From NCBI RefSeq assembly GCF_051097895.1, contig NZ_CP142525.1:150001-182000 (forward strand): a stretch of DNA of 32,000 nt, in the 5' to 3' direction. The first letter of the stretch is position 1. Every line of letters starts with the position of its first letter. The notes below the pieces were generated by a model. It searched no databases. It saw only the letters and a program-made list of their open reading frames with translations, and was not told the origin of the DNA. Of this stretch, positions 7,098 through 19,399 are shown piece after piece. This stretch comes from Psychrobacter sp. HD31. Lineage in GTDB: Bacteria > Pseudomonadota > Gammaproteobacteria > Pseudomonadales > Moraxellaceae. A program made the translations under genes and the position numbers.

Positions 7098-7120
7098 TAT
7101 GGTGGAGGTGGCGGGAGTTG
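7098..7120. repeat. int-distal att repeat (duplicate of the ssrA 3' end)
   Basis: TATGGTGGAGGTGGCGGGAGTTG is identical to 19041-19063. Confidence 0.9.
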
Positions 7121-7171
7121 TTTTTATCTATACAGCCCTTTATTTAAAAGGGATTAAGGTTTTCGTATTTT

Positions 7172-7194
7172 AAATATACCGTAAAATATACCGT
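7172..7194 (+). promoter_or_regulatory. Tandem TATACCGT motifs, candidate integrase arm-type sites (int-distal arm)
   Basis: AAATATACCGTAAAATATACCGT is identical to 18906-18928 and lies 52 bp inside the att repeat. Confidence 0.5.
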
Positions 7195-7701
7195 AATTTT
7201 ACAAAGTGTATTGCCTATTTGGGTATACCCCCTGCCGACTTTTGACCACATAAAAAAACGCTGGGGCTCGATGGTCTTTTAGACTAAGCCTTCCCACTTT
7301 GTACTCCCCCCTAGGTAGCTAAAAGCTCTGCCTATATAATTTGCAAATGGCTTTTCTCTTTTGTCCTTGTCATGTTTATTGCTCATACTCTTATACAGTC
7401 TACTACCGCCTTTTTGTCTATTCCATAAATTCATAAGACAAAAAAGGGAAATTTTTTTTCAAAATAGAAATTTTTTTATGAATGAGAGAGGGTGTGGTGT
7501 CCGCTTGGTATACCTTCCCAAACTTTTTGATACCCCCCTCCTTTGGGTAGGATGTTGGCATTACTATTATTTACTCTGACCTAAATAGCTTTTGGTTGAT
7601 TGCATTTATTGATTAATTAATGTCACATATGAGGCTTGCTATATTTATTGTTGGTTGACTCTTGAGGTTATATACTTATCATAGAAACGCCTTCAATTGC
7701 T

Positions 7702-7831
7702 TGCACACGCACGCACCCCCAAAACACGCTATTATGCTATTAATTCCTTTCTATGCTATGCGTACCAAGGGATACGAGGGATTGAGCTGTCTGCTATTGC
7801 GTGCTATTAGGTGCTATTCATGCTATTAATT
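7702..7831 (+). repeat. Iteron-bearing ~130-bp repeat, copy A (upstream of umuD)
   Basis: Long identical blocks are shared with 9703-9839 and, in inverted orientation, 17101-17220. It holds six GCTATT units, four of them at 9-10 bp spacing. Confidence 0.85.
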
Positions 7832-7902: not shown

Positions 7903-8328
7903 ATGACTATCAAAATACTTGGTAAACTTTCGGCAAAAACATATCAGCCCTTACCTTTCTTTATTGAAGCTGTACCGGCTGGCTTTCCATCACCAGCAGA
8001 GGGCTACGCTGACGCAAGTATTGATTTAAATGAACTTTGTATAACTCACCCTAGTGCAACCTTTTTAGTACGTTCTAGTGGGCACTCAATGATTAACAAA
8101 GGTATCTTTGATAATGACTTATTGGTTGTAGATAGAAGTATAGAAGCTGTATCAGGAGATATTGTTGTGTGCATGGTAAATGGGGAGTTTACTGTTAAGG
8201 AGCTAGTACTAGAGCAAAAACCTATGCTAGTTGCCCATAACCCTGAATACCAAAATATAGAGCTTAACAGTGATATGGACTTTGAAGTCTTTGGTGTTGT
8301 AACAAATGTGATACGTAGTTTTAAATAA
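7903..8328 (+). CDS. umuD: UmuD-like S24 peptidase (translesion polymerase V accessory subunit)
   Basis: 141 aa with the LexA/UmuD fold pattern. The serine motif is SGHSM and a downstream Lys lies in FTVKEL. It sits immediately upstream of umuC. Confidence 0.8.
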   Translation: MTIKILGKLSAKTYQPLPFFIEAVPAGFPSPAEGYADASIDLNELCITHPSATFLVRSSGHSMINKGIFDNDLLVVDRSIEAVSGDIVVCMVNGEFTVKELVLEQKPMLVAHNPEYQNIELNSDMDFEVFGVVTNVIRSFK

Positions 8329-8417
8329 GACAACTATTGTTGCCTAACATGGTTCCGTTTTATTCTCTGAAAAATAATCATGATATAGTAATCTCACTTA
8401 ATAAATGAGTGATACCC

Positions 8418-9698
8418 ATGTATGCCTTAATTGATTGCAACAGCTTCTATGCCAGTTGTGAAAAACTATTCAGACCTGACCTTAAATATAAACCCGTTGT
8501 TGTGTTATCTAACAATGATGGTTGTGTGGTTGCACGCTCTAAAGAAGCTAAAGCCTTGGGTATTAAAATGGGCGTACCATACTTTAAGGTAGAGGGCTTC
8601 TGTAAAGCAAATGATGTAAGTGTGTTTAGTTCTAACTATACCCTGTATTCCGATTTGTCTAACCGTGTTATGTGTACGCTTGAAAGCCTATGCCCTACGG
8701 TAGAGATATACTCTATTGATGAAGCATTTTTATACCTTGATGACTACCCAACAGCCATGCAAGATTTAGAAGCATACGGGCAAATGATTAAACAAACGGT
8801 ATATAAACATACTGGCATACCTGTGGGTGTTGGTATAGGAAAAACCAAAACATTGGCTAAATTGGCAAACTATGCTGCCAAAAAACACCCCGCTACCGAT
8901 GGCGTTTGTGTATTAGATAATAGGCGTTGGATTAACCGCTTAATGCAGATAACGCCCGTTGGCGAAGTTTGGGGCGTGGGTAGAAGATATGCCAAAACAC
9001 TTAACGACATGGGTATAAACACAGTAGCAGATTTGGCGAATATGCCGTCAGGGTTGGTTAGGCAAAAGTATGGGGTGGTATTAGAACGCACACAACGAGA
9101 ATTAAACGGTCAACCCTGCCTAGATATTGAGCCAGTACAGTTAAAAAAACAGATTGTATCCTCTCGCTCATTTTCTAAACGCATTACCAATAAGCAAGAT
9201 TTAACAGAGGCGTTATGCGGTCACACAGCTAAGGCGATGGCTAAGCTAAGGGAGCAAGATAGTTTATGTACAACCATAAGCGTATTTGCTCGTAATAGTC
9301 CGTTTAGTAAGCATGAAAAGTTTACCCCTGTATCAGGGCAATATACTTTTAATGAGGCGACAAATAACACTACAGAGATGATAAAAGCGGTTAGGCTTGT
9401 TATAGATAATATGTATCAGGACAAGGTTAATTATGCAAAGGCTGGCGTTATGCTATCAGGTATTGTACAAGAAGATGAGGTGCAACCCGATTTGTTTAGT
9501 TTTGCAGGTTTAAACCCAATCAAAAAAGCAAAAGATGATGCCATTATGCAGTTAATGGATAAACTGAATACAAATAACAGCCATCAATTATTTATTGCCA
9601 GTGAGGGTGTAAGGAATAAACAAGAATGGTTAATGAATAGGCAGTATTTAAGCCCGTGTTATACAACTAGGGTTAGTGATTTGGTTTGTGTTAACTGA
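8418..9698 (+). CDS. umuC: UmuC-like Y-family DNA polymerase (Pol V catalytic subunit)
   Basis: The N-terminus [15 protein letters not shown] and SIDEAFL are classic Y-family motifs. The ATG at 8418 is preferred over the GTG at 8409. Confidence 0.88.
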
Positions 9699-9702
9699 TA
9701 AT

Positions 9703-9839
9703 CCATTTGCTTGTATACGAACGTACCCAAAACACGCTATTATGCTATTAATTCCTTTCTATTCTATGCGTACCAAGGGACACAGAGGATTTAATAAAAT
9801 GCTATTGCGTGCTATTAGGTGCTATTTATGCTATTAATT
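9703..9839 (+). repeat. Iteron-bearing repeat, copy B (downstream of umuC)
   Basis: Direct repeat of copy A. It shares AAAACACGCTATTATGCTATTAATTCCTTTCTA, CTATGCGTACCAAGGGA and GCTATTGCGTGCTATTAGGTGCTATT.ATGCTATTAATT. Confidence 0.85.
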
Positions 9840-10091: not shown

Positions 10092-12308
10092 TTATTTGTC
10101 AGTAAATACTTTTGGGTTGAGTTCTATACTGGCTTTGTTGTCGTGTTTAATCTCTCGTATGTGGTTATTATCTTTTAATATCTTGATAAGTGGGTCTAGC
10201 TTTTTCTTTTTGCGTAAGCTTGTAGGTGTTATGCCTTGCTGTAGTTTTACCCTAGGAACAATAGTTATATTATTCTCACGGCAATAGTTAATAAGCCAGT
10301 TTTCTACTCTATCTGCTTGTACTAGTTTTTCATCAAAATCCGTATAGCCTCCATAGCGTTCCCACTCCATGAGGCTATGCTCTGCCAATTTAATGCCACT
10401 GACCATTAGTTCGGGTGTTATTGCCTCTGACCCTTCAAAAAATGCCAACACGGTTGCAATGCGTATTGCGTTTGGTAAGGCTCTACCTGCAAATGACTTT
10501 AGGTGTACAAACTTGCCAGCACGTCCAACCTTTTTTTCAATATCATTATAAAAGTTCATTGCTAGGGTGTCGGCTTCATCGGTAAGGGGTATAACAGGGC
10601 GTTCAATGCGTCCGTCTATACTTTGAGGTGGTATTTTATCGAGTAAAAACTGGCAACGCCTCCAGTATTCAACTAAGCGTTTATCTTTGTAAAACTCTCT
10701 ATTATTTTTCCATGTATCTGCGGTATGGGTACGCTTGCCCGCCAAGGTGTCGGGGGCAGTGAATAAAAACCTACACAAAAAGCCTTGCTCCATCATCATT
10801 TTGTCATTTAGCACTTTTTCTAAGGCTACCTTTTGCCCTAGCATGTTAATACACAAACGCACGTCATAAGCCACGCCTGACCCATTCGCATTTGAACGTG
10901 AGCGGTGACGTGCTACTGGCTCACCATCCCATGTTTCTGTACATATGGATAGGGTAGACCCTTGATTATCTGCACTAAATGAGTATGACCCAAATACTTT
11001 GCTTGCTTCACCGCCAGTGATATAAGCACTTTTAAGGTGTTCATGAATATAAGAGCCCACAAGGCTGTCTATTGTAAAATCGCTATATATGGCTTTTGGG
11101 TTTAATGGTTTGGGGTATTTTTGTTCGTATTCCTCTTTCGCTTTATTACCTTTGCATTGTGCTAGGGCTTTGTTATGCTCTTCTAATCTGTCTAGGTATT
11201 GGTTGTATTCTTTTTTGTCATGCTCAACTATCCGTAAATTAGCTTTATTGATACAAGAGGATTTTCTATCTCCACTATCTCCCTCAATCATAATAAACAA
11301 GCTACAAGGCTCGCCATATTGATGTTGGAATGAGCGGGCATTTACATGGTTTTGGGCTAAATAAGCCATCGCCCCAAGTACCGTATGACCAGCCATAGCT
11401 ATGCTGGCTTGTGAGTGCTGTGCTATAGCACTAACCGCATTTTTAGCCAGTGGTGGAAAAGCGTCTAATGGGTATCGGTTGGGTTCGCCCCGTTCATTTA
11501 TTAATAAAGTAAAAGGCTCGCTTTTATTAATTTCATCCCAAGATAGTTGTTTTTTTTCATCATCAGATAGGGTAGTAGATGTATTGGCTATATTCATACG
11601 GTGGATGTCTGCATTATCCATTAATCGTATAACCTCTGTATTATCTATCTCCCAGTCTATGGCAAATTCTAGGGCATATATAGCAACATTGGTATTGGTT
11701 AGTAGGGTCTTGTAGTCGCTAAGCTCATGTATGCCTATAGGGGCTATTAAACGCCCTTTGGCTTTAAATTGCCATTGCTTGGCTACATAGGCAAGGTTTG
11801 CAGGTGTAAAGCACACCATGATGGTTGCTGTACTATCTAGTTTGTAAAGATTTAGCCCCGCCTGTAGGTCTGCTACCAGGTAAACTTTATTATCCGTGGT
11901 AAAGGAAGAGCCGATAATAAAAGCACCTTGCGGATGTATTATTGGTTCAAAAATGGTTTTACCTTGAATACCTTTATCATCAATGGGTGGAATCATGGCG
12001 GTGTTAGTAGGCTGTAAATCACTATTTACCAAAGGTAATAATAAATGATTAATGCAATTTATATTGCCATTGTCTCCTTTAGTAAAGCCTTCTTTAGTGA
12101 GCAGTATATTACCGCTAATAATTGCACTTGCAGGTAGGTGTGCTAAAGGCTCATGGTATTGGCTTATTACATCATTGGTAGCACGGTTATTCTCAAATAA
12201 TCTTATGAGTTGTTGTGCAGGATTTTGATTTAATGATGGTTCATTTGCTGGCGGTTCATTGCCACCTTTGGTTGTACTTTGCTTAGTTTTATCGGTTTGG
12301 GTATTCAC
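10092..12308 (-). CDS. DUF3987 (YfjI-like) primase/helicase-like replication protein
   Basis: 738 aa. The central block YPLDAFPPLAKNAVSAIAQHSQASIAMAGHTVLGAMAYLAQ matches the characteristic DUF3987 N-terminal motif. A P-loop-like GDSGDRKS follows. The gene sits downstream of alpA, as in CP4-57. Confidence 0.65.
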   Translation of the reverse strand: MNTQTDKTKQSTTKGGNEPPANEPSLNQNPAQQLIRLFENNRATNDVISQYHEPLAHLPASAIISGNILLTKEGFTKGDNGNINCINHLLLPLVNSDLQPTNTAMIPPIDDKGIQGKTIFEPIIHPQGAFIIGSSFTTDNKVYLVADLQAGLNLYKLDSTATIMVCFTPANLAYVAKQWQFKAKGRLIAPIGIHELSDYKTLLTNTNVAIYALEFAIDWEIDNTEVIRLMDNADIHRMNIANTSTTLSDDEKKQLSWDEINKSEPFTLLINERGEPNRYPLDAFPPLAKNAVSAIAQHSQASIAMAGHTVLGAMAYLAQNHVNARSFQHQYGEPCSLFIMIEGDSGDRKSSCINKANLRIVEHDKKEYNQYLDRLEEHNKALAQCKGNKAKEEYEQKYPKPLNPKAIYSDFTIDSLVGSYIHEHLKSAYITGGEASKVFGSYSFSADNQGSTLSICTETWDGEPVARHRSRSNANGSGVAYDVRLCINMLGQKVALEKVLNDKMMMEQGFLCRFLFTAPDTLAGKRTHTADTWKNNREFYKDKRLVEYWRRCQFLLDKIPPQSIDGRIERPVIPLTDEADTLAMNFYNDIEKKVGRAGKFVHLKSFAGRALPNAIRIATVLAFFEGSEAITPELMVSGIKLAEHSLMEWERYGGYTDFDEKLVQADRVENWLINYCRENNITIVPRVKLQQGITPTSLRKKKKLDPLIKILKDNNHIREIKHDNKASIELNPKVFTDK

Positions 12309-12357: not shown

Positions 12358-12789
12358 TTAACGTCTGCCATAGCGTGATAGTCGTCTTTTTTGGTAGTGA
12401 CGTTTGCGTTTTTTGTAGCGGTTTCGTCTTTGTTCGGCTGTTGTGTTTAGCGTGCTGTGACTTAACCTGTACTGGTCGCATTGCCTAGAAGGGTGTAGAT
12501 GTTCAAAGCCTGTAATGCAACCTATGTGGATAGTGCATTGCTCTACTTGCCAGCCATATTGTGGTTTGTCTGCTTGTAGAGCTAGGCAAGTTTGCTTTGC
12601 TTGTTCTAGGGTCAGGGGTATGCCAGTAACCCCAAAGGGGGCTACTGGGTTGCCTGTTTGATTGACGGCATAGTATTGGATATAGTCGCCATCTAATACA
12701 CACTCAAAGTCGCTTAGGTCGTTAAGGCTGGTTATGCTTTTGGGCAGGTCAATACTCGATATAGTGGTACTGGTTGTATTTGTATTCAC
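12358..12789 (-). CDS. Hypothetical protein with an extremely basic C-terminal tail
   Basis: 143-aa ORF whose start overlaps the stop of the upstream gene by 4 nt. The tail reads RRNRYKKRKRHYQKRRLSRYGRR. Confidence 0.6.
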   Translation of the reverse strand: MNTNTTSTTISSIDLPKSITSLNDLSDFECVLDGDYIQYYAVNQTGNPVAPFGVTGIPLTLEQAKQTCLALQADKPQYGWQVEQCTIHIGCITGFEHLHPSRQCDQYRLSHSTLNTTAEQRRNRYKKRKRHYQKRRLSRYGRR

Positions 12790-13658
12790 AATATACCCCC
12801 AACACGTCCGTTAGTAGTTTTTGCCATTTCATCATTTAGTCTATTGATGGTATGACGTATAAAATCGGCATTGGTTTCACTGCTTAGTTGTGCTAGTCGT
12901 GCAAGGGCTTGGATTTGGCTTATACTATCTAGTGCTTTGATTGTTGCAAAAAGGCTGGTTAGGTTGTTTAAGGCTTCATAAACGCATAATAAATCATCTA
13001 TATTGCTTCGTGCCTCACCAACTGGTAAAGAGATGGTTTCATTTTGGATATTTGCATTACCTTGTGGTATATCAGTTACGTTATTAGAAGGGTTATTACT
13101 GGCTGGTACTATTGCGTCACTGGGAGGTCTAATCACCTTATAACCATCATATTCTGCCTGTAACTCTTGCATAGTGACAATATTGCTTAGGATATTATCC
13201 ATTGCTTCTAGTTTCGCTTTACTGTTACGGGTGTCTAGCCCTGCTTTTTGGTTTAATTCAACTTCTGCATTTAGTTGATTGAGTGCATTATGAGCATATT
13301 TGCACCAGTCGTTAAGGGTAGGTGTTTGATGATTAAATGCCTTTGTTGGCTCACTTGCCAGCTTGGCGGGCATGTGCGTTTGCAACTGAATACGCATTAG
13401 GTCGATACTTTTTATTACTTCCTTACTGTCTGTTGTAAAATCCATGGTTAGGATTTCATCAATAGTTTGTAGGTGTCTGATTGTTTGTGTATCGTGCGAG
13501 TGGGTTTGAGTATAAGCCTTGGTAGCCGTTTTTAGAGCGTCTAATAGCTCTATTTGCTCTACCTTGCAGGTAATGCTGTCTTGACTGTCGCCAAGTAGCT
13601 GTAACAGCTCATCACGGTTAATTTGTGTGGTTATTGGGGTTTGGTTTGATGTGGTCAT
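12786..13658 (-). CDS. Hypothetical protein, apparently alpha-helical
   Basis: 290-aa ORF with 4-nt start/stop overlaps on both sides, consistent with translational coupling. No family was recognised. Confidence 0.6.
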   Translation of the reverse strand: MTTSNQTPITTQINRDELLQLLGDSQDSITCKVEQIELLDALKTATKAYTQTHSHDTQTIRHLQTIDEILTMDFTTDSKEVIKSIDLMRIQLQTHMPAKLASEPTKAFNHQTPTLNDWCKYAHNALNQLNAEVELNQKAGLDTRNSKAKLEAMDNILSNIVTMQELQAEYDGYKVIRPPSDAIVPASNNPSNNVTDIPQGNANIQNETISLPVGEARSNIDDLLCVYEALNNLTSLFATIKALDSISQIQALARLAQLSSETNADFIRHTINRLNDEMAKTTNGRVGGIL

Positions 13659-14074
13659 GATTGACCTCCTAATAGATTTTGAGTTAATGCCACGCTATGA
13701 AAATTCATAGGGTAACGGGTCTTACTCTCGGTACTATTAGTAACCGCCCTGCATATTCGCCTAATGGCTTTTGTATTTTGCAACGTCAACCCGTTATAAG
13801 GTGGTAAATTGATTACCATAGATACAACGGTTTTACCCTGTTGGGTAAATTGCTTTGTACTTTTATACTGGTTTGGTTGAGAGCCGTGCCAGTTTTTTTG
13901 CACAAAAAAAGCCAATGGTTCACGGATTGGCTGTCCGCTAATAGTTTTAGAGAGGTCTCCAGTATAGGCGAATGCACAACTAAAAGGCAAGCACAATAAT
14001 ATAAATATGATTATTGCCATGCAGGTATCTTTTATTCTTTTAGCTAGTTTATGTTTGGGTTGTTTGGTGGTCAT
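13655..14074 (-). CDS. Hypothetical small secreted or membrane-anchored protein
   Basis: 139 aa. A basic N-terminus (KHKLAKRIK) is followed by a hydrophobic segment AIIIFILLCLPFSCAFA. It overlaps both neighbours by 4 nt. Confidence 0.55.
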   Translation of the reverse strand: MTTKQPKHKLAKRIKDTCMAIIIFILLCLPFSCAFAYTGDLSKTISGQPIREPLAFFVQKNWHGSQPNQYKSTKQFTQQGKTVVSMVINLPPYNGLTLQNTKAIRRICRAVTNSTESKTRYPMNFHSVALTQNLLGGQS

Positions 14075-15171
14075 TTGTTTGCTCCGTTATTAATTGAGTC
14101 ACTTATAGACGCAAGTAACAATCCAGCGGGGTTGTAATGAGTTAAACCATGGGTCATGGCATGGTCAAAGATAAGCCCTGTCTCTCGGATTATCGCCATA
14201 GCTTGGTCGCTGTCTGCTTTCTCTTGAACATCAAGCATGATGGCTTCAATATTGCCGTGTGATATATCCCTAATATCCATAGAACCAATCAGCGGTTTAA
14301 CAAAATGAATATAGGCAGCATACAAACGGTCGTTTGTGCTTTTATCTAGTTGAGCTTTATGCTCTGCAAACCACCCTTGTGCAATGTCATCAAATAGATT
14401 GGAGCGGTGCATGGTTGTGGTTTTTACTACTGGGGAGCTTGGATTTAAGTGTATAAAGCCGTTTATCTCATCGCTAAAGGTTTGTAGCCTTGTTTGTAGA
14501 ATTTGATTAATTACGGCTAAATGGTGGGCGTTATCGTCTTTGCTCATCATGATAAAACCAATATCATCACGGTAAAGGTTGTGGTTATGGCGTGTGGTTG
14601 TATCTTCAATGTTGTTTAAGGGGCTACTCCCAAAACTTGCACAGTCGGCAATAAAGCGGTGTCCTTTAAGTGTAACCATTGTGAGGAGATACTCGCCTCG
14701 TTTTGACGGGTAAACGTCATTTATATTGAGGGGGTCAGTAGGCTTGATTTGCTCTATGTCGTGAACATAGGCAAAGTTGCTGGCACGTGTACTCCACTCG
14801 TCATTATGTGACTTGTATTTAGTAGAGTAGTCGGGGTGGTTGCGTATGTCATCATTGGTTAAACCATTGTTAAGGGCATGAGATAACTCCTCATAGTCCA
14901 TATATTGGCGGTTAACAATTAATATACTATCTACGGTATCATTGATACATTCTAGCCAGCCATTGGCTATGTGAATGGTCATATCCGCTACATAATCCCA
15001 ATCGGTACAATCAAAGCCAACATTGATATGGTTGCCTTTTTTACTGGTAGCAATAAGCACATACTTGTGTTGCTTTGCCTGCTCTAGGTTAGTTACCCAA
15101 GGTTTACCGTTAGCAGTGGCGTTGTCATTAAATGGGTCGGGGTGTACGGTATGAATTGGTTGTTTAGTCAT
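14071..15171 (-). CDS. Hypothetical protein: unknown N-terminal region fused to an integrase core-binding (SAM-like) domain, with no catalytic domain
   Basis: 366 aa. Residues ~260-350 align at roughly 45-50 percent identity (hand count) with residues ~101-190 of the island integrase. The shared blocks are FD.IAQ.W.AE.K..L.K.T.DR.Y.AY...VKP.IG.M.I.DI and IRE.G.IF.HA...GL...NPA. Confidence 0.6.
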   Translation of the reverse strand: MTKQPIHTVHPDPFNDNATANGKPWVTNLEQAKQHKYVLIATSKKGNHINVGFDCTDWDYVADMTIHIANGWLECINDTVDSILIVNRQYMDYEELSHALNNGLTNDDIRNHPDYSTKYKSHNDEWSTRASNFAYVHDIEQIKPTDPLNINDVYPSKRGEYLLTMVTLKGHRFIADCASFGSSPLNNIEDTTTRHNHNLYRDDIGFIMMSKDDNAHHLAVINQILQTRLQTFSDEINGFIHLNPSSPVVKTTTMHRSNLFDDIAQGWFAEHKAQLDKSTNDRLYAAYIHFVKPLIGSMDIRDISHGNIEAIMLDVQEKADSDQAMAIIRETGLIFDHAMTHGLTHYNPAGLLLASISDSINNGANK

Positions 15172-15173
15172 GA

Positions 15174-15464
15174 TTAAGCTACCCCGTCATCGTTATAGTT
15201 TTCGTCATTTGAGGCTTGGGCTTTGAACCAAGCGTGCACGTCCTCATTTGCCCATGCTGTTACTGTTGGGCTTAATTTATGAGGTTTAGGGAATAAGCCC
15301 TCTTTAGTCCATTTCCAAAGCGTGCTTTCGCCAATGGGTAAATAGGGTAGTAGCTGTTTTGCTCGACTAAAGCCATTAACGGGTAAGGCTGGGGGCTGGG
15401 TGTTGCTAGTTTGTCTATCTAATTCGCTTTTATTTGCGTTTTGAGAGGTGTTTGCGGTAGTCAT
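15174..15464 (-). CDS. alpA: AlpA-family helix-turn-helix regulator (excision/transcription activator)
   Basis: LPIGESTLWKWTKEGLFPKPHKLSPTVTAWANEDVHAWF matches the Phage_AlpA pattern. The start at M18 (15464) is preferred because AAGGAA lies upstream. The longest ORF would start at 15515. Confidence 0.8.
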   Translation of the reverse strand: MTTANTSQNANKSELDRQTSNTQPPALPVNGFSRAKQLLPYLPIGESTLWKWTKEGLFPKPHKLSPTVTAWANEDVHAWFKAQASNDENYNDDGVA

Positions 15465-15578
15465 AGTACAATTCCTTATCTTTAAGTTGTAAATGCTTAA
15501 ATACACTATTGTCATCTATCACCGTGGTAATGAATGACGCTAGATGTTTGGAATTGTAGAAGTTGGAGCGTTTCAGTG

Positions 15579-17635: not shown

Positions 17636-18880
17636 TTATTGGTTAATAGACTTTCCTGTATCAGATTTAAAATCAACGTGTATCACATTATCCAATGTGC
17701 CAAGCTTTGCATTATCAATAATTTTAGCCCAATCATTCATCATCTTGGTTCTATACTTAATATACATAGCACCATCATAAGCTTTGCTTACCTTGTTATC
17801 TTTATCGTGGGCTAATTGTAGCTCAATAGCTTCGTGCATATATTCAAGTTCATGTAGGGTTGTGCTGGCAAGACCTCTAAAGCCGTGTGTGGTCATCTTC
17901 CCTTTGTAACCCATTTTGTATAGAGCATTTATAAAAGCATGTGAACTTAAAGGCTGGCGTTTGCTGGTGTTATAAAATACATATTTTTCACTAAACCCCA
18001 ATCCTTTGATTTGTTGTAGTAGCTCAATAACAGGTGGTGCTAACGGTACCAGGTGTTTACGTTTTACTTTCATTTTTTCGGCTGATAAACGTATTATTTT
18101 ATCTTTAAAATCAATATCTGCCCATTCAAGCATTCTTACCTCATTGGTTCTCAAAAAGGTGTAGCAAGTAAACCACAAGCCTAGTTTAACCAATACATGC
18201 CCTTTATAGTTGTCAATATCTTGTAATAGCTGGGGTAGTTGTCGTATCGTAATACGGTTGTGGTGCTTTGTTATACTCGGCTGTATGGCTTCTGTGAGGT
18301 TTATAGCTGGGTTGTGAGTAGCTAAACCTTGCCTAATAGCATGCTTAAATATTTGCCCAACCTCACGTATGGTACGTTTTGACATCTCTATTGCTCCCCG
18401 TTTTTCAATGGCTTTTCCAATAGCTAAAATATCAGGAGGGGCTATATCTGTAATTATCATATGTCCTATAGCGGGTTTTACATCCCTTTCATAAGCAGAA
18501 TAATTACGGTCATATGTTTTCTTAGCAAGGTAAGTTTTACGCTCTGCATACCACTCTTGTGCGATGTTATCAAACAATAGAGAGCCATCTACTTTGGCTT
18601 TTTGCTCTTTTTTGTGTTGCTTAGGGTCTGTGCCTTGGGCAATCATTTGGCGGACGTGTTGGTGTTTTTGGCGGGCTTGTGCCAATGACAGTATAGGATA
18701 CTTACCAAGAGTAAGGCTTTGGCGTTTACCGTTAAATTTATAGTCTGATACCCAAACCTTATTACCAGTATGACGTACCCAAAGACGTAAGCCGTCTCCA
18801 TCACTGTATTTGTCAGGGCGGGCAGGGGTACATTTATCGGTTGGCTTCAACCGTTTAATGGCGGTATCTGTTAGAGGCAT
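17636..18880 (-). CDS. int: P4/CP4-57-type tyrosine integrase (arm-binding DUF4102 N-terminus, SAM-like core-binding domain, catalytic domain)
   Basis: 414 aa. The N-terminus LTDTAIKRLKP...DGDGLRLWV is typical of P4-type integrases. Catalytic-domain motifs LRTNEV and HGFRGLAST are present. It lies adjacent to ssrA. Confidence 0.9.
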   Translation of the reverse strand: MPLTDTAIKRLKPTDKCTPARPDKYSDGDGLRLWVRHTGNKVWVSDYKFNGKRQSLTLGKYPILSLAQARQKHQHVRQMIAQGTDPKQHKKEQKAKVDGSLLFDNIAQEWYAERKTYLAKKTYDRNYSAYERDVKPAIGHMIITDIAPPDILAIGKAIEKRGAIEMSKRTIREVGQIFKHAIRQGLATHNPAINLTEAIQPSITKHHNRITIRQLPQLLQDIDNYKGHVLVKLGLWFTCYTFLRTNEVRMLEWADIDFKDKIIRLSAEKMKVKRKHLVPLAPPVIELLQQIKGLGFSEKYVFYNTSKRQPLSSHAFINALYKMGYKGKMTTHGFRGLASTTLHELEYMHEAIELQLAHDKDNKVSKAYDGAMYIKYRTKMMNDWAKIIDNAKLGTLDNVIHVDFKSDTGKSINQ

Positions 18881-18905
18881 TGACGGTATATTTCCTTAAT
18901 TAAAT

Positions 18906-18928
18906 AAATATACCGTAAAATATACCGT
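18906..18928 (+). promoter_or_regulatory. Tandem TATACCGT motifs, candidate integrase arm-type sites (int-proximal arm)
   Basis: Identical 23-mer to 7172-7194. An inverted ACGGTATA lies at 18883-18890 next to the int start codon. Confidence 0.5.
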
Positions 18929-19040
18929 TATTTTAAATAGATTACAAGAGACTATACTAGACTATATAATAGTCTAAATCCCCTGTAAGCCTTTAAAAAT
19001 ATAGCCCAGTCGGATTATATCAGACTGGGCTATATTGGTG

Positions 19041-19063
19041 TATGGTGGAGGTGGCGGGAGTTG
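19041..19063. repeat. int-proximal att repeat (functional 3' end of ssrA plus 2 nt)
   Basis: Identical to 7098-7120. Confidence 0.9.
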
Positions 19064-19399
19064 AACCCGCGTCCGCCAGCACTACGCTCATGAATCTACA
19101 TGTTTAGGGTCTGTCTATAAATTTAATCCGTTCCGAACCGACAGTCAGGTAAGATTGGACGAGTCTTTAAATTTAGTCTCATTAGTCAAGACACCTAACA
19201 AGACGGACCTATGTGCGTTCGCTTCGGGGTGATCAACCTAACCATAGGTAGTTAGTGACGACCCAAGCAGCCCTTAGGCTGCTAGAGCGTAAGTTTCGTC
19301 GTTTGCGACTATTTTAAAATATACTTGATTTACGAGAGGGTATAACTCTCGACATGCATCATTGAGTTTCATCACCAGCGTCGAAGCCAGAACACCCCC
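19043..19399 (-). ncRNA. ssrA: tmRNA (transfer-messenger RNA)
   Basis: The 5' end GGGGGTGTTCTGGCTTCGAC pairs with the 3' end CACCTCC-A-CCA, including a G3-U wobble. The T-arm is GGGTTCAACTCCC. The tag reading frame GCAAACGACGAAACTTACGCTCTAGCAGCCTAA (19274-19306) encodes ANDETYALAA. Confidence 0.95.

Follow-up and report, generated by a model that had tools for sequence, protein, structure and literature searches.

The window analysed here is a stretch of 32,000 nucleotides (nt) of Psychrobacter sp. HD31 (contig NZ_CP142525.1, positions 150,001 to 182,000). It carries an island of ~12 kb bounded by an exact 23-bp direct repeat, an attachment (att) core of which one copy (19041-19063) lies at the 3' end of the minus-strand transfer-messenger RNA (tmRNA) gene (19043-19399, called by ARAGORN and Rfam) and the other (7098-7120) at the far end of the island; the island is integrated in the tmRNA gene. 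On the minus strand we find the gene of a P4-type integrase (17636-18880) matching all of PF13356, PF22022 and PF00589, two unknown open reading frames (ORFs), alpA (15174-15515; PF05930, E 6e-6; excisionase/transcriptional regulator by PHROG), the gene of interest ORF366 (14071-15171, VH441_00625, 366 amino acids (aa)), ORF139 (13655-14074), ORF290 (12786-13658, with its ATG at 13658), ORF143 and the gene of a DUF3987 primase-helicase-like protein (10092-12308). This layout of int, alpA and DUF3987 primase-helicase is one that we take to be in the style of P4-like or phage-inducible chromosomal island (PICI)-like integrative elements. ORF366 is the first gene after alpA, starting 2 nt past the alpA stop codon, and its own TGA overlaps the ATG of ORF139. 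It is a chimera: its N-terminal part belongs to a rare family of island proteins and its C-terminal part resembles one domain of the island's own integrase.

By sequence similarity, the C-terminal piece of ORF366 is the core-binding (central) domain of a P4-type integrase. The first-pass annotation, made by eye, had aligned residues ~260-350 colinearly with the island integrase at a hand-counted identity of 45-50% and assigned them to the SAM-like core-binding domain of P4-type integrases, and both points hold: BLASTP aligns residues 257-366 (14074-14403) without gaps to integrase residues 100-209 (18254-18583), that is, to the integrase's own core-binding domain, with 49 of 110 positions identical (45%), 58% positives and an E value, for this one comparison, of 7e-23. 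Residues 260-350 (14122-14394) match PF22022 (Phage_int_M) over profile positions 1-91 of 96, at 38.7 bits (E 1.2e-9) against a curated gathering cut-off of 27 and against 78 bits for the island integrase, while PF14659 (Phage_int_SAM_3) scores under threshold. The PDB sequence matches of ORF366 are nuclear magnetic resonance (NMR) structures of the same central domain from P4-type integrases (2kj8, E 2e-4), a domain for which 2kkv, 2kj5 and 2kj9 are further NMR structures. The limits of this piece, hereafter the graft, lie a few residues from the Pfam domain boundaries at both ends.

The rest of an integrase is missing, as had been proposed. ORF366 has no match to the arm-binding domain PF13356 (89.9 bits in the island integrase) and none at E ≤ 0.1 to the catalytic domain PF00589 (68.6 bits in the island integrase), it stops where the catalytic domain would start in the BLASTP alignment, and a divergent catalytic domain elsewhere in the protein, which would have contradicted the first-pass description, was not detected by Pfam. 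Because arm-binding and catalytic domains are both absent it is not a complete tyrosine recombinase, and it cannot be a recombinase. Nor is there a match in ORF366 to the winged-helix/helix-turn-helix (HTH) families PF05930 or PF12728; alpA, immediately upstream, is a separate gene with such a match.

Homology to the N-terminal family ends at about residue 245 of ORF366 and integrase homology begins at residue 257, leaving a linker rich in proline, serine and threonine (residues 246-256, SSPVVKTTTMH; 14404-14436, minus strand). An in-frame ATG at codon 253 lies inside this linker, four codons ahead of the integrase homology. One could imagine that the chimera does not exist as such, being either two products or an error of assembly, with a true stop between the parts or a restart at M253 giving a protein of 114 aa resembling MpsB of SGI1 (discussed below), the more so as a single assembly exists; we consider this very improbable, since the frame is unbroken in the deposited sequence (a 2.17-Mb contig), M253 has no Shine-Dalgarno motif upstream, and sequencing errors break ORFs more often than they fuse two in frame. 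At the other end of the graft, a GGAG ribosome-binding motif for ORF139, read from the sequence (14082-14085, minus strand), lies within the last codons of ORF366, which suggests that these few codons stem from the original upstream region of ORF139 and not from an integrase.

The N-terminal part (residues 1-245; 14437-15171, minus strand) is, by its alignments, a full-length representative of a small protein family that is usually encoded just after alpA, hereafter the post-alpA family. A phmmer scan of 1.84 billion representative proteins gave matches over query residues ~19-244, including five true relatives: P0002 (E 9e-20), P0004, P0006, P0008 and P0011, at E values of 9e-20 to 1e-4. Later additions were the partial P0013 and an ORF of island L014 (9185-10357) in Psychrobacter aquimaris, the L014 ORF being found by the family profile at E 2e-30. 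The family is rare: it has about eight members, which come from Psychrobacter and Moraxella islands of the ssrA/tRNA type that are related to this one. Its stand-alone members are 222-231 aa long and end at the very point where the linker of ORF366 starts; the region had been described as unknown, and it is at any rate no orphan. The gene lies within ~60 nt of alpA in islands L001, L014 and L006-L010, with one 197-aa ORF between the two in L002 and L003. Compared with L001, the N-terminal part has identities of 0.53, 0.66 and 0.34 at codon positions 1, 2 and 3, the third being least conserved as is typical of a coding region. The majority of related islands (L011-L013, L015, L016, L019, L020, L022 and L023) are without the family and have instead, at ~9050-9560, an ORF of 84-115 aa after alpA, with a motif like YEAYDLYNITCFLQRISELR; the slot after alpA is thus variable across the island family.

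An AlphaFold model of the N-terminal part built from six sequences (predicted local distance difference test (pLDDT) 65, predicted template modelling score (pTM) 0.68) consists of two strand-strand-helix-strand units, and Foldseek comparison with PDB and BFVD gave no significant neighbour; a model of whole ORF366 from its single sequence was uninformative (pLDDT 37). The first-pass annotation had suspected an internal duplication in this part, and its two motifs fall on equivalent hairpins of the two modelled units. The sequence signal is marginal: BLASTP is not significant (E 0.11) and profile-profile comparison by hhalign gives E 0.037 over 33 columns, in the register first proposed. We regard the duplication as plausible, chiefly on the strength of the model. 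Residues ~8-57 also gave short repeated matches (up to 18 stretches) to Ig-like/BiPBP_C-type repeats of giant surface proteins (P0003, P0005, P0007, P0009, P0010 and P0012); homology to these proteins was set aside, and the similarity treated as compositional or as that of beta-hairpins.

The combination of the two parts was found once. ORF366 has the sequence of P0001, the sole member of its cluster in a set of 5.8 billion proteins, and no relative of the fusion was found in genome, metagenome, viral, plasmid or phage collections. The integrase piece is absent from every member of the post-alpA family, and a survey of other islands for recurrence of the architecture next to alpA, as the first-pass annotation had envisaged, turned up no relative with it. 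Searched with the graft, L001 and 11 of another 14 Psychrobacter and Moraxella islands (L011-L024) give a match to their own integrase gene and to nothing else, and the remaining three give no match. The integrase domain is thus a late, lineage-specific addition seen only in the HD31 genome, and the in-frame, domain-exact graft, to judge from these searches, unique to Psychrobacter sp. HD31.

Several simple origins were rejected. A deletion remnant of a second integrase, which an intact integrase at this position in related islands would have indicated, is not supported: no second integrase or integrase fragment occurs there in ~25 related loci. Moreover, the fragment is flanked on both sides by non-integrase genes, so that a single deletion cannot explain it and an insertion of ~320 nt is required. 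A recent copy of a known integrase was rejected because no word-sharing protein among the 5.8 billion passes E 1e-3 and because even the nearest of 16 integrases compared, the island's own, reaches 44% identity. Insertion mediated by the integrase itself found no support either, there being no site like the att core (best 13 of 23 positions) and no flanking repeat at the junctions.

We compared the graft with 16 integrase central domains by distances, neighbour-joining bootstrap and charge. The nearest of the 16 is that of HD31's own integrase, at 44% identity; sister integrases are 31-39% identical to the graft and 57-71% identical to the HD31 integrase. In 99.9% of bootstraps the graft groups within the integrase clade of the island, and we infer an origin by duplication from a member of that clade. 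The branch of the graft, derived from the identity comparison by uncorrected three-point distances, is ~3.7 times that of the integrase.

Nucleotide identity of the graft to the integrase segment is 61, 61 and 43% at codon positions 1, 2 and 3, so that third positions are near saturation and first and second positions are not, and the divergence is therefore not neutral. The graft has no stops and no indels in 110 codons, whereas neutral simulation to equal amino-acid divergence ends at 70% nucleotide identity with a mean of four stops, and only 1.2% of the simulated sequences keep an open frame. Of 32 hydrophobic-core positions the graft retains 25, as many as do distant genuine integrases. 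Most of the divergence thus took place under protein-level constraint. The first-pass opinion that the gene is not debris is borne out on these grounds, the piece being open, gapless and domain-bounded as well as free of any second-integrase background in related loci.

The main and serious rival must be weighed at this point: a tolerated accident, in which an integrase fragment was joined in frame to the post-alpA gene at its 3' end and has since been a harmless, drifting tail without a function of its own. ORF366 is a singleton and the other family members work without the graft; insertion in frame and in the correct orientation has a chance of ~1 in 6, and a stop was supplied ready-made by the pre-existing ATGA at ORF139. 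The long branch, the halved Pfam score and the loss of 18 of 39 clade-invariant and 8 of 15 basic positions would all suit drift, and truncated integrase ORFs are common enough to have PHROG families of their own (phrog_4710 and phrog_3423). The codon-position pattern, the rarity of open frames in the simulations and a charge reversal unlike the outcome of random mutation (below) speak against it, as does the coincidence of both graft ends with domain boundaries, which the PHROG fragments, spanning integrase residues 79-273, do not respect. We rate the accident as somewhat less likely than the explanation favoured below.

The graft differs most plainly from its integrase counterparts in charge. 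Its net charge is -6 to -7 (isoelectric point (pI) 5.1-5.5), against +2 to +12 (pI 9.1-10.0) in all 16 integrase domains, and whole ORF366 has a pI of 5.6. The graft no longer has 8 of the 15 basic positions that the clade conserves, including two invariant arginines (R326A and R340T), with K336D and a change of R/K to M at position 325 among the replacements; K272, R282, K292, K318 and R329 are kept. Random mutation from the integrase sequence, with stops avoided, gives a charge of +4.9 ± 4.4 and reaches -7 or below with P = 0.004. A reversal so rarely produced by random mutation speaks for a remodelling of the domain.

This bears directly on the function first proposed for ORF366, namely that its core-binding domain occupies the att core, or the core DNA of a competitor, as a directionality, excision-control or interference factor. 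In its favour are the retained fold-defining residues and the five retained basic residues, the co-transcription with alpA, of a known excision regulator family, and the precedent of MpsB of SGI1, a separate core-binding-type protein essential for a DNA transaction (PMC6414798). With an acidic surface, occupancy of att core DNA by the graft is unlikely, and it is the invariant arginines and their neighbours at 325 and 336 that have gone. There is also no core-like sequence near ORF366, which has no bearing on binding at att itself. As far as its residues can tell, the graft lacks the basic DNA-contact surface of functional core-binding domains and is probably no longer a classical att-core DNA binder; we accordingly rate the proposal as unlikely.

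Our best explanation, which we put forward tentatively, is that ORF366 is a lineage-specific chimera with a selected graft that serves as a protein-interaction module. Of its elements, domain identity, architecture, uniqueness, the signature of selection and the reversal of charge have been shown. A segment of ~105 codons, exactly the core-binding domain, would be a copy taken from an integrase gene in the clade of the island integrase and placed in frame, via the short linker, behind a complete copy of the post-alpA protein, at a point just upstream of the ORF139 ribosome-binding site. Protein-level selection would afterwards have kept it as a folded helical domain while it shed about half of its conserved basic residues and became acidic. 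Produced together with AlpA upon induction of the island, the module may contact the core-binding domain of the integrase, whether as a decoy or as a tether of the N-terminal part to the recombination complex. Such a protein-interaction or decoy role is, we infer, the most likely one for the graft, and a part in controlling or interfering with the integrase is possible, more probably through protein contacts than through DNA. A sharper version, for which we see rather little probability, is an integrase-derived decoy that docks on the island's own integrase or that of a same-clade competitor and blocks or redirects synapsis when AlpA switches the operon on.

Four points tell against this explanation. 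The fusion has been seen once, so that selection after fusion is inseparable from selection in an unsampled donor integrase. The changes at 18 of the 39 clade-invariant positions would fit relaxed constraint as well. Placement within the integrase clade is split in the neighbour-joining bootstraps between sister of the HD31 integrase (44%) and basal to the clade (53%), a pattern expected of a long branch. Finally, neither Pfam, PHROGs, NCBIfam and PADLOC nor the sequences of PDB gave a match for the N-terminal family to which the graft is joined.

Known systems offer partial parallels. The P4-type (CP4-57/IntS-like) integrases share with ORF366 residues 257-366 a homologous PF22022 central domain of the same clade; they differ in possessing arm-binding and catalytic domains and in being basic, where ORF366 is acidic with half of the basic residues gone. 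The truncated integrase ORFs of phrog_4710 and phrog_3423 are likewise incomplete integrases that still have the central domain, but they cross domain boundaries (79-273 in phrog_4710; also 1-153) and have no complete fusion partner, whereas the piece in ORF366 is domain-exact and fused in frame to a complete protein. Recombination directionality factors (RDFs) such as the AlpA and Xis excisionases are comparable in that ORF366 shares the alpA operon position, would share its expression timing, and is proposed to have a conceptually similar role in biasing or controlling the integrase; ORF366 differs in that it contains neither a winged-helix nor an HTH_17 domain. The known RDFs are basic proteins of small size that bend DNA and, to our knowledge, are not related to integrase domains.

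The best known analogue is MpsB of SGI1, a protein of 98 aa that resembles an integrase's N-terminal core-binding domain and has as its partner MpsA, a tyrosine-recombinase-like relaxase (PMC6414798). In both cases a core-binding-type domain is encoded apart from a catalytic domain in an integrative element, SGI1 being an integrative mobilizable island, and MpsB shows that such a domain, when separate, can act in its own right (PMC6414798). MpsB, though, is a small single domain of PF13495 beside a catalytic-domain protein, whereas ORF366 is a 366-aa fusion with PF22022, and no PF00589 match was found in its neighbours ORF285, ORF139, ORF290, ORF143 and the DUF3987 protein. ORF366 thus lacks the features that define the MpsB/MpsA pair.

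Translational coupling of ORF366 to both neighbours had also been claimed. The 2-nt gap to alpA and the TGA/ATG overlap with ORF139 agree with this, but the argument is weakened on the 3' side because ORF139 overlaps a structured RNA and evolves unlike a normal coding region. A conserved structured RNA of ~270 nt (~13689-13955, minus strand) covers the 3' two-thirds of ORF139. At least 18 islands (that of the window, L001, L005, L008 and L011-L024) carry it, with the post-alpA genes on one side and the primase gene on the other. Apparent ORF139 homologues are present in all related islands, and at ~50% amino-acid identity their codon positions 1, 2 and 3 are conserved at ~0.65, 0.72 and 0.68, unlike control genes, in which position-3 conservation is 0.26-0.45; the DNA alignment of the region contains long invariant blocks. 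A structure of 40 pairs in 8 helices has 97.7% of alignment cells paired, versus 31-45% when partners are slid, and 14 pairs changed on both sides, a level reached in 0 of 500 shuffles, and the minus strand is the one with which the G-U pairs agree. Rfam RF02221 (sRNA-Xcc1) matches 13706-13795, the 3' part of the element, over the full model (1-87) at 36.6 bits (E 1.2e-4), and matches the relatives, again over 1-87, at 40.7-46.7 bits (E values 4e-5 to 1e-3 overall). All of these scores are under the gathering score of 53 bits; the RNA is related to sRNA-Xcc1 without being a member at the curated threshold.

In the RNAalifold structure, an invariant CUCUC box (13951-13955), located at the 5' end of the element, is paired with the AGGAG ribosome-binding site of ORF290 (13665-13669, minus strand). 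Few of these pairs covary; in the model, the box could sequester the ribosome-binding site over a long range. In P0002, P0011, P0013 (a partial call of 298 aa) and L014 9185-10357, the post-alpA gene is annotated as a 'fusion' of 386-390 aa, which continues via a hydrophobic stretch into the ORF139-region RNA element. Rather than encoding genuine two-domain proteins, ORFs of this length may be artefacts of read-through, and a 'Rosetta stone' link of the N-terminal family to ORF139 through these four was dropped, the ORF139 region being under nucleotide/RNA constraint.

Elsewhere in the island, a 36-nt direct repeat of 92% identity lies just within both att ends (7171-7206 and 18905-18940), and each copy contains two tandem AAATATACCGT units; on their sequence and position these are candidate arm-type sites for the N-terminal domain of the integrase. 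The plus strand carries umuD (7903-8328) and umuC (8409-9698), with 114-nt direct repeats of 89% identity on either side of the pair (7718-7831 and 9726-9839), which suggests that this translesion-polymerase cargo joined the island as a separate module. ORF290 gave weak matches to Cas5f in PADLOC (E 6e-4, 17 bits) and to an exonuclease in PHROG (E 9e-3), both probably due to chance, and its homologue in L001 a faint TraI_C flag. Promoter and terminator scans gave no signal over chance level.

The practical weight of ORF366 is small at present, this being one gene in one genome, and the RNA under ORF139, conserved in many islands, may be the more generally useful lead of the locus. If the graft is an accident, the gene is a clean snapshot of the birth of a new multi-domain gene in islands. 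If it is functional, a mobile element would be reusing a single domain from its integrase for regulation or interference; the gene would then join MpsB of SGI1, the only case in which experiments support a separate core-binding-type protein, and provide a simple test bed for integrase domain-domain contacts. Should the decoy version prove true, ORF366 would be a factor of a new type, controlling recombination or opposing integrases and made from the integrase itself.

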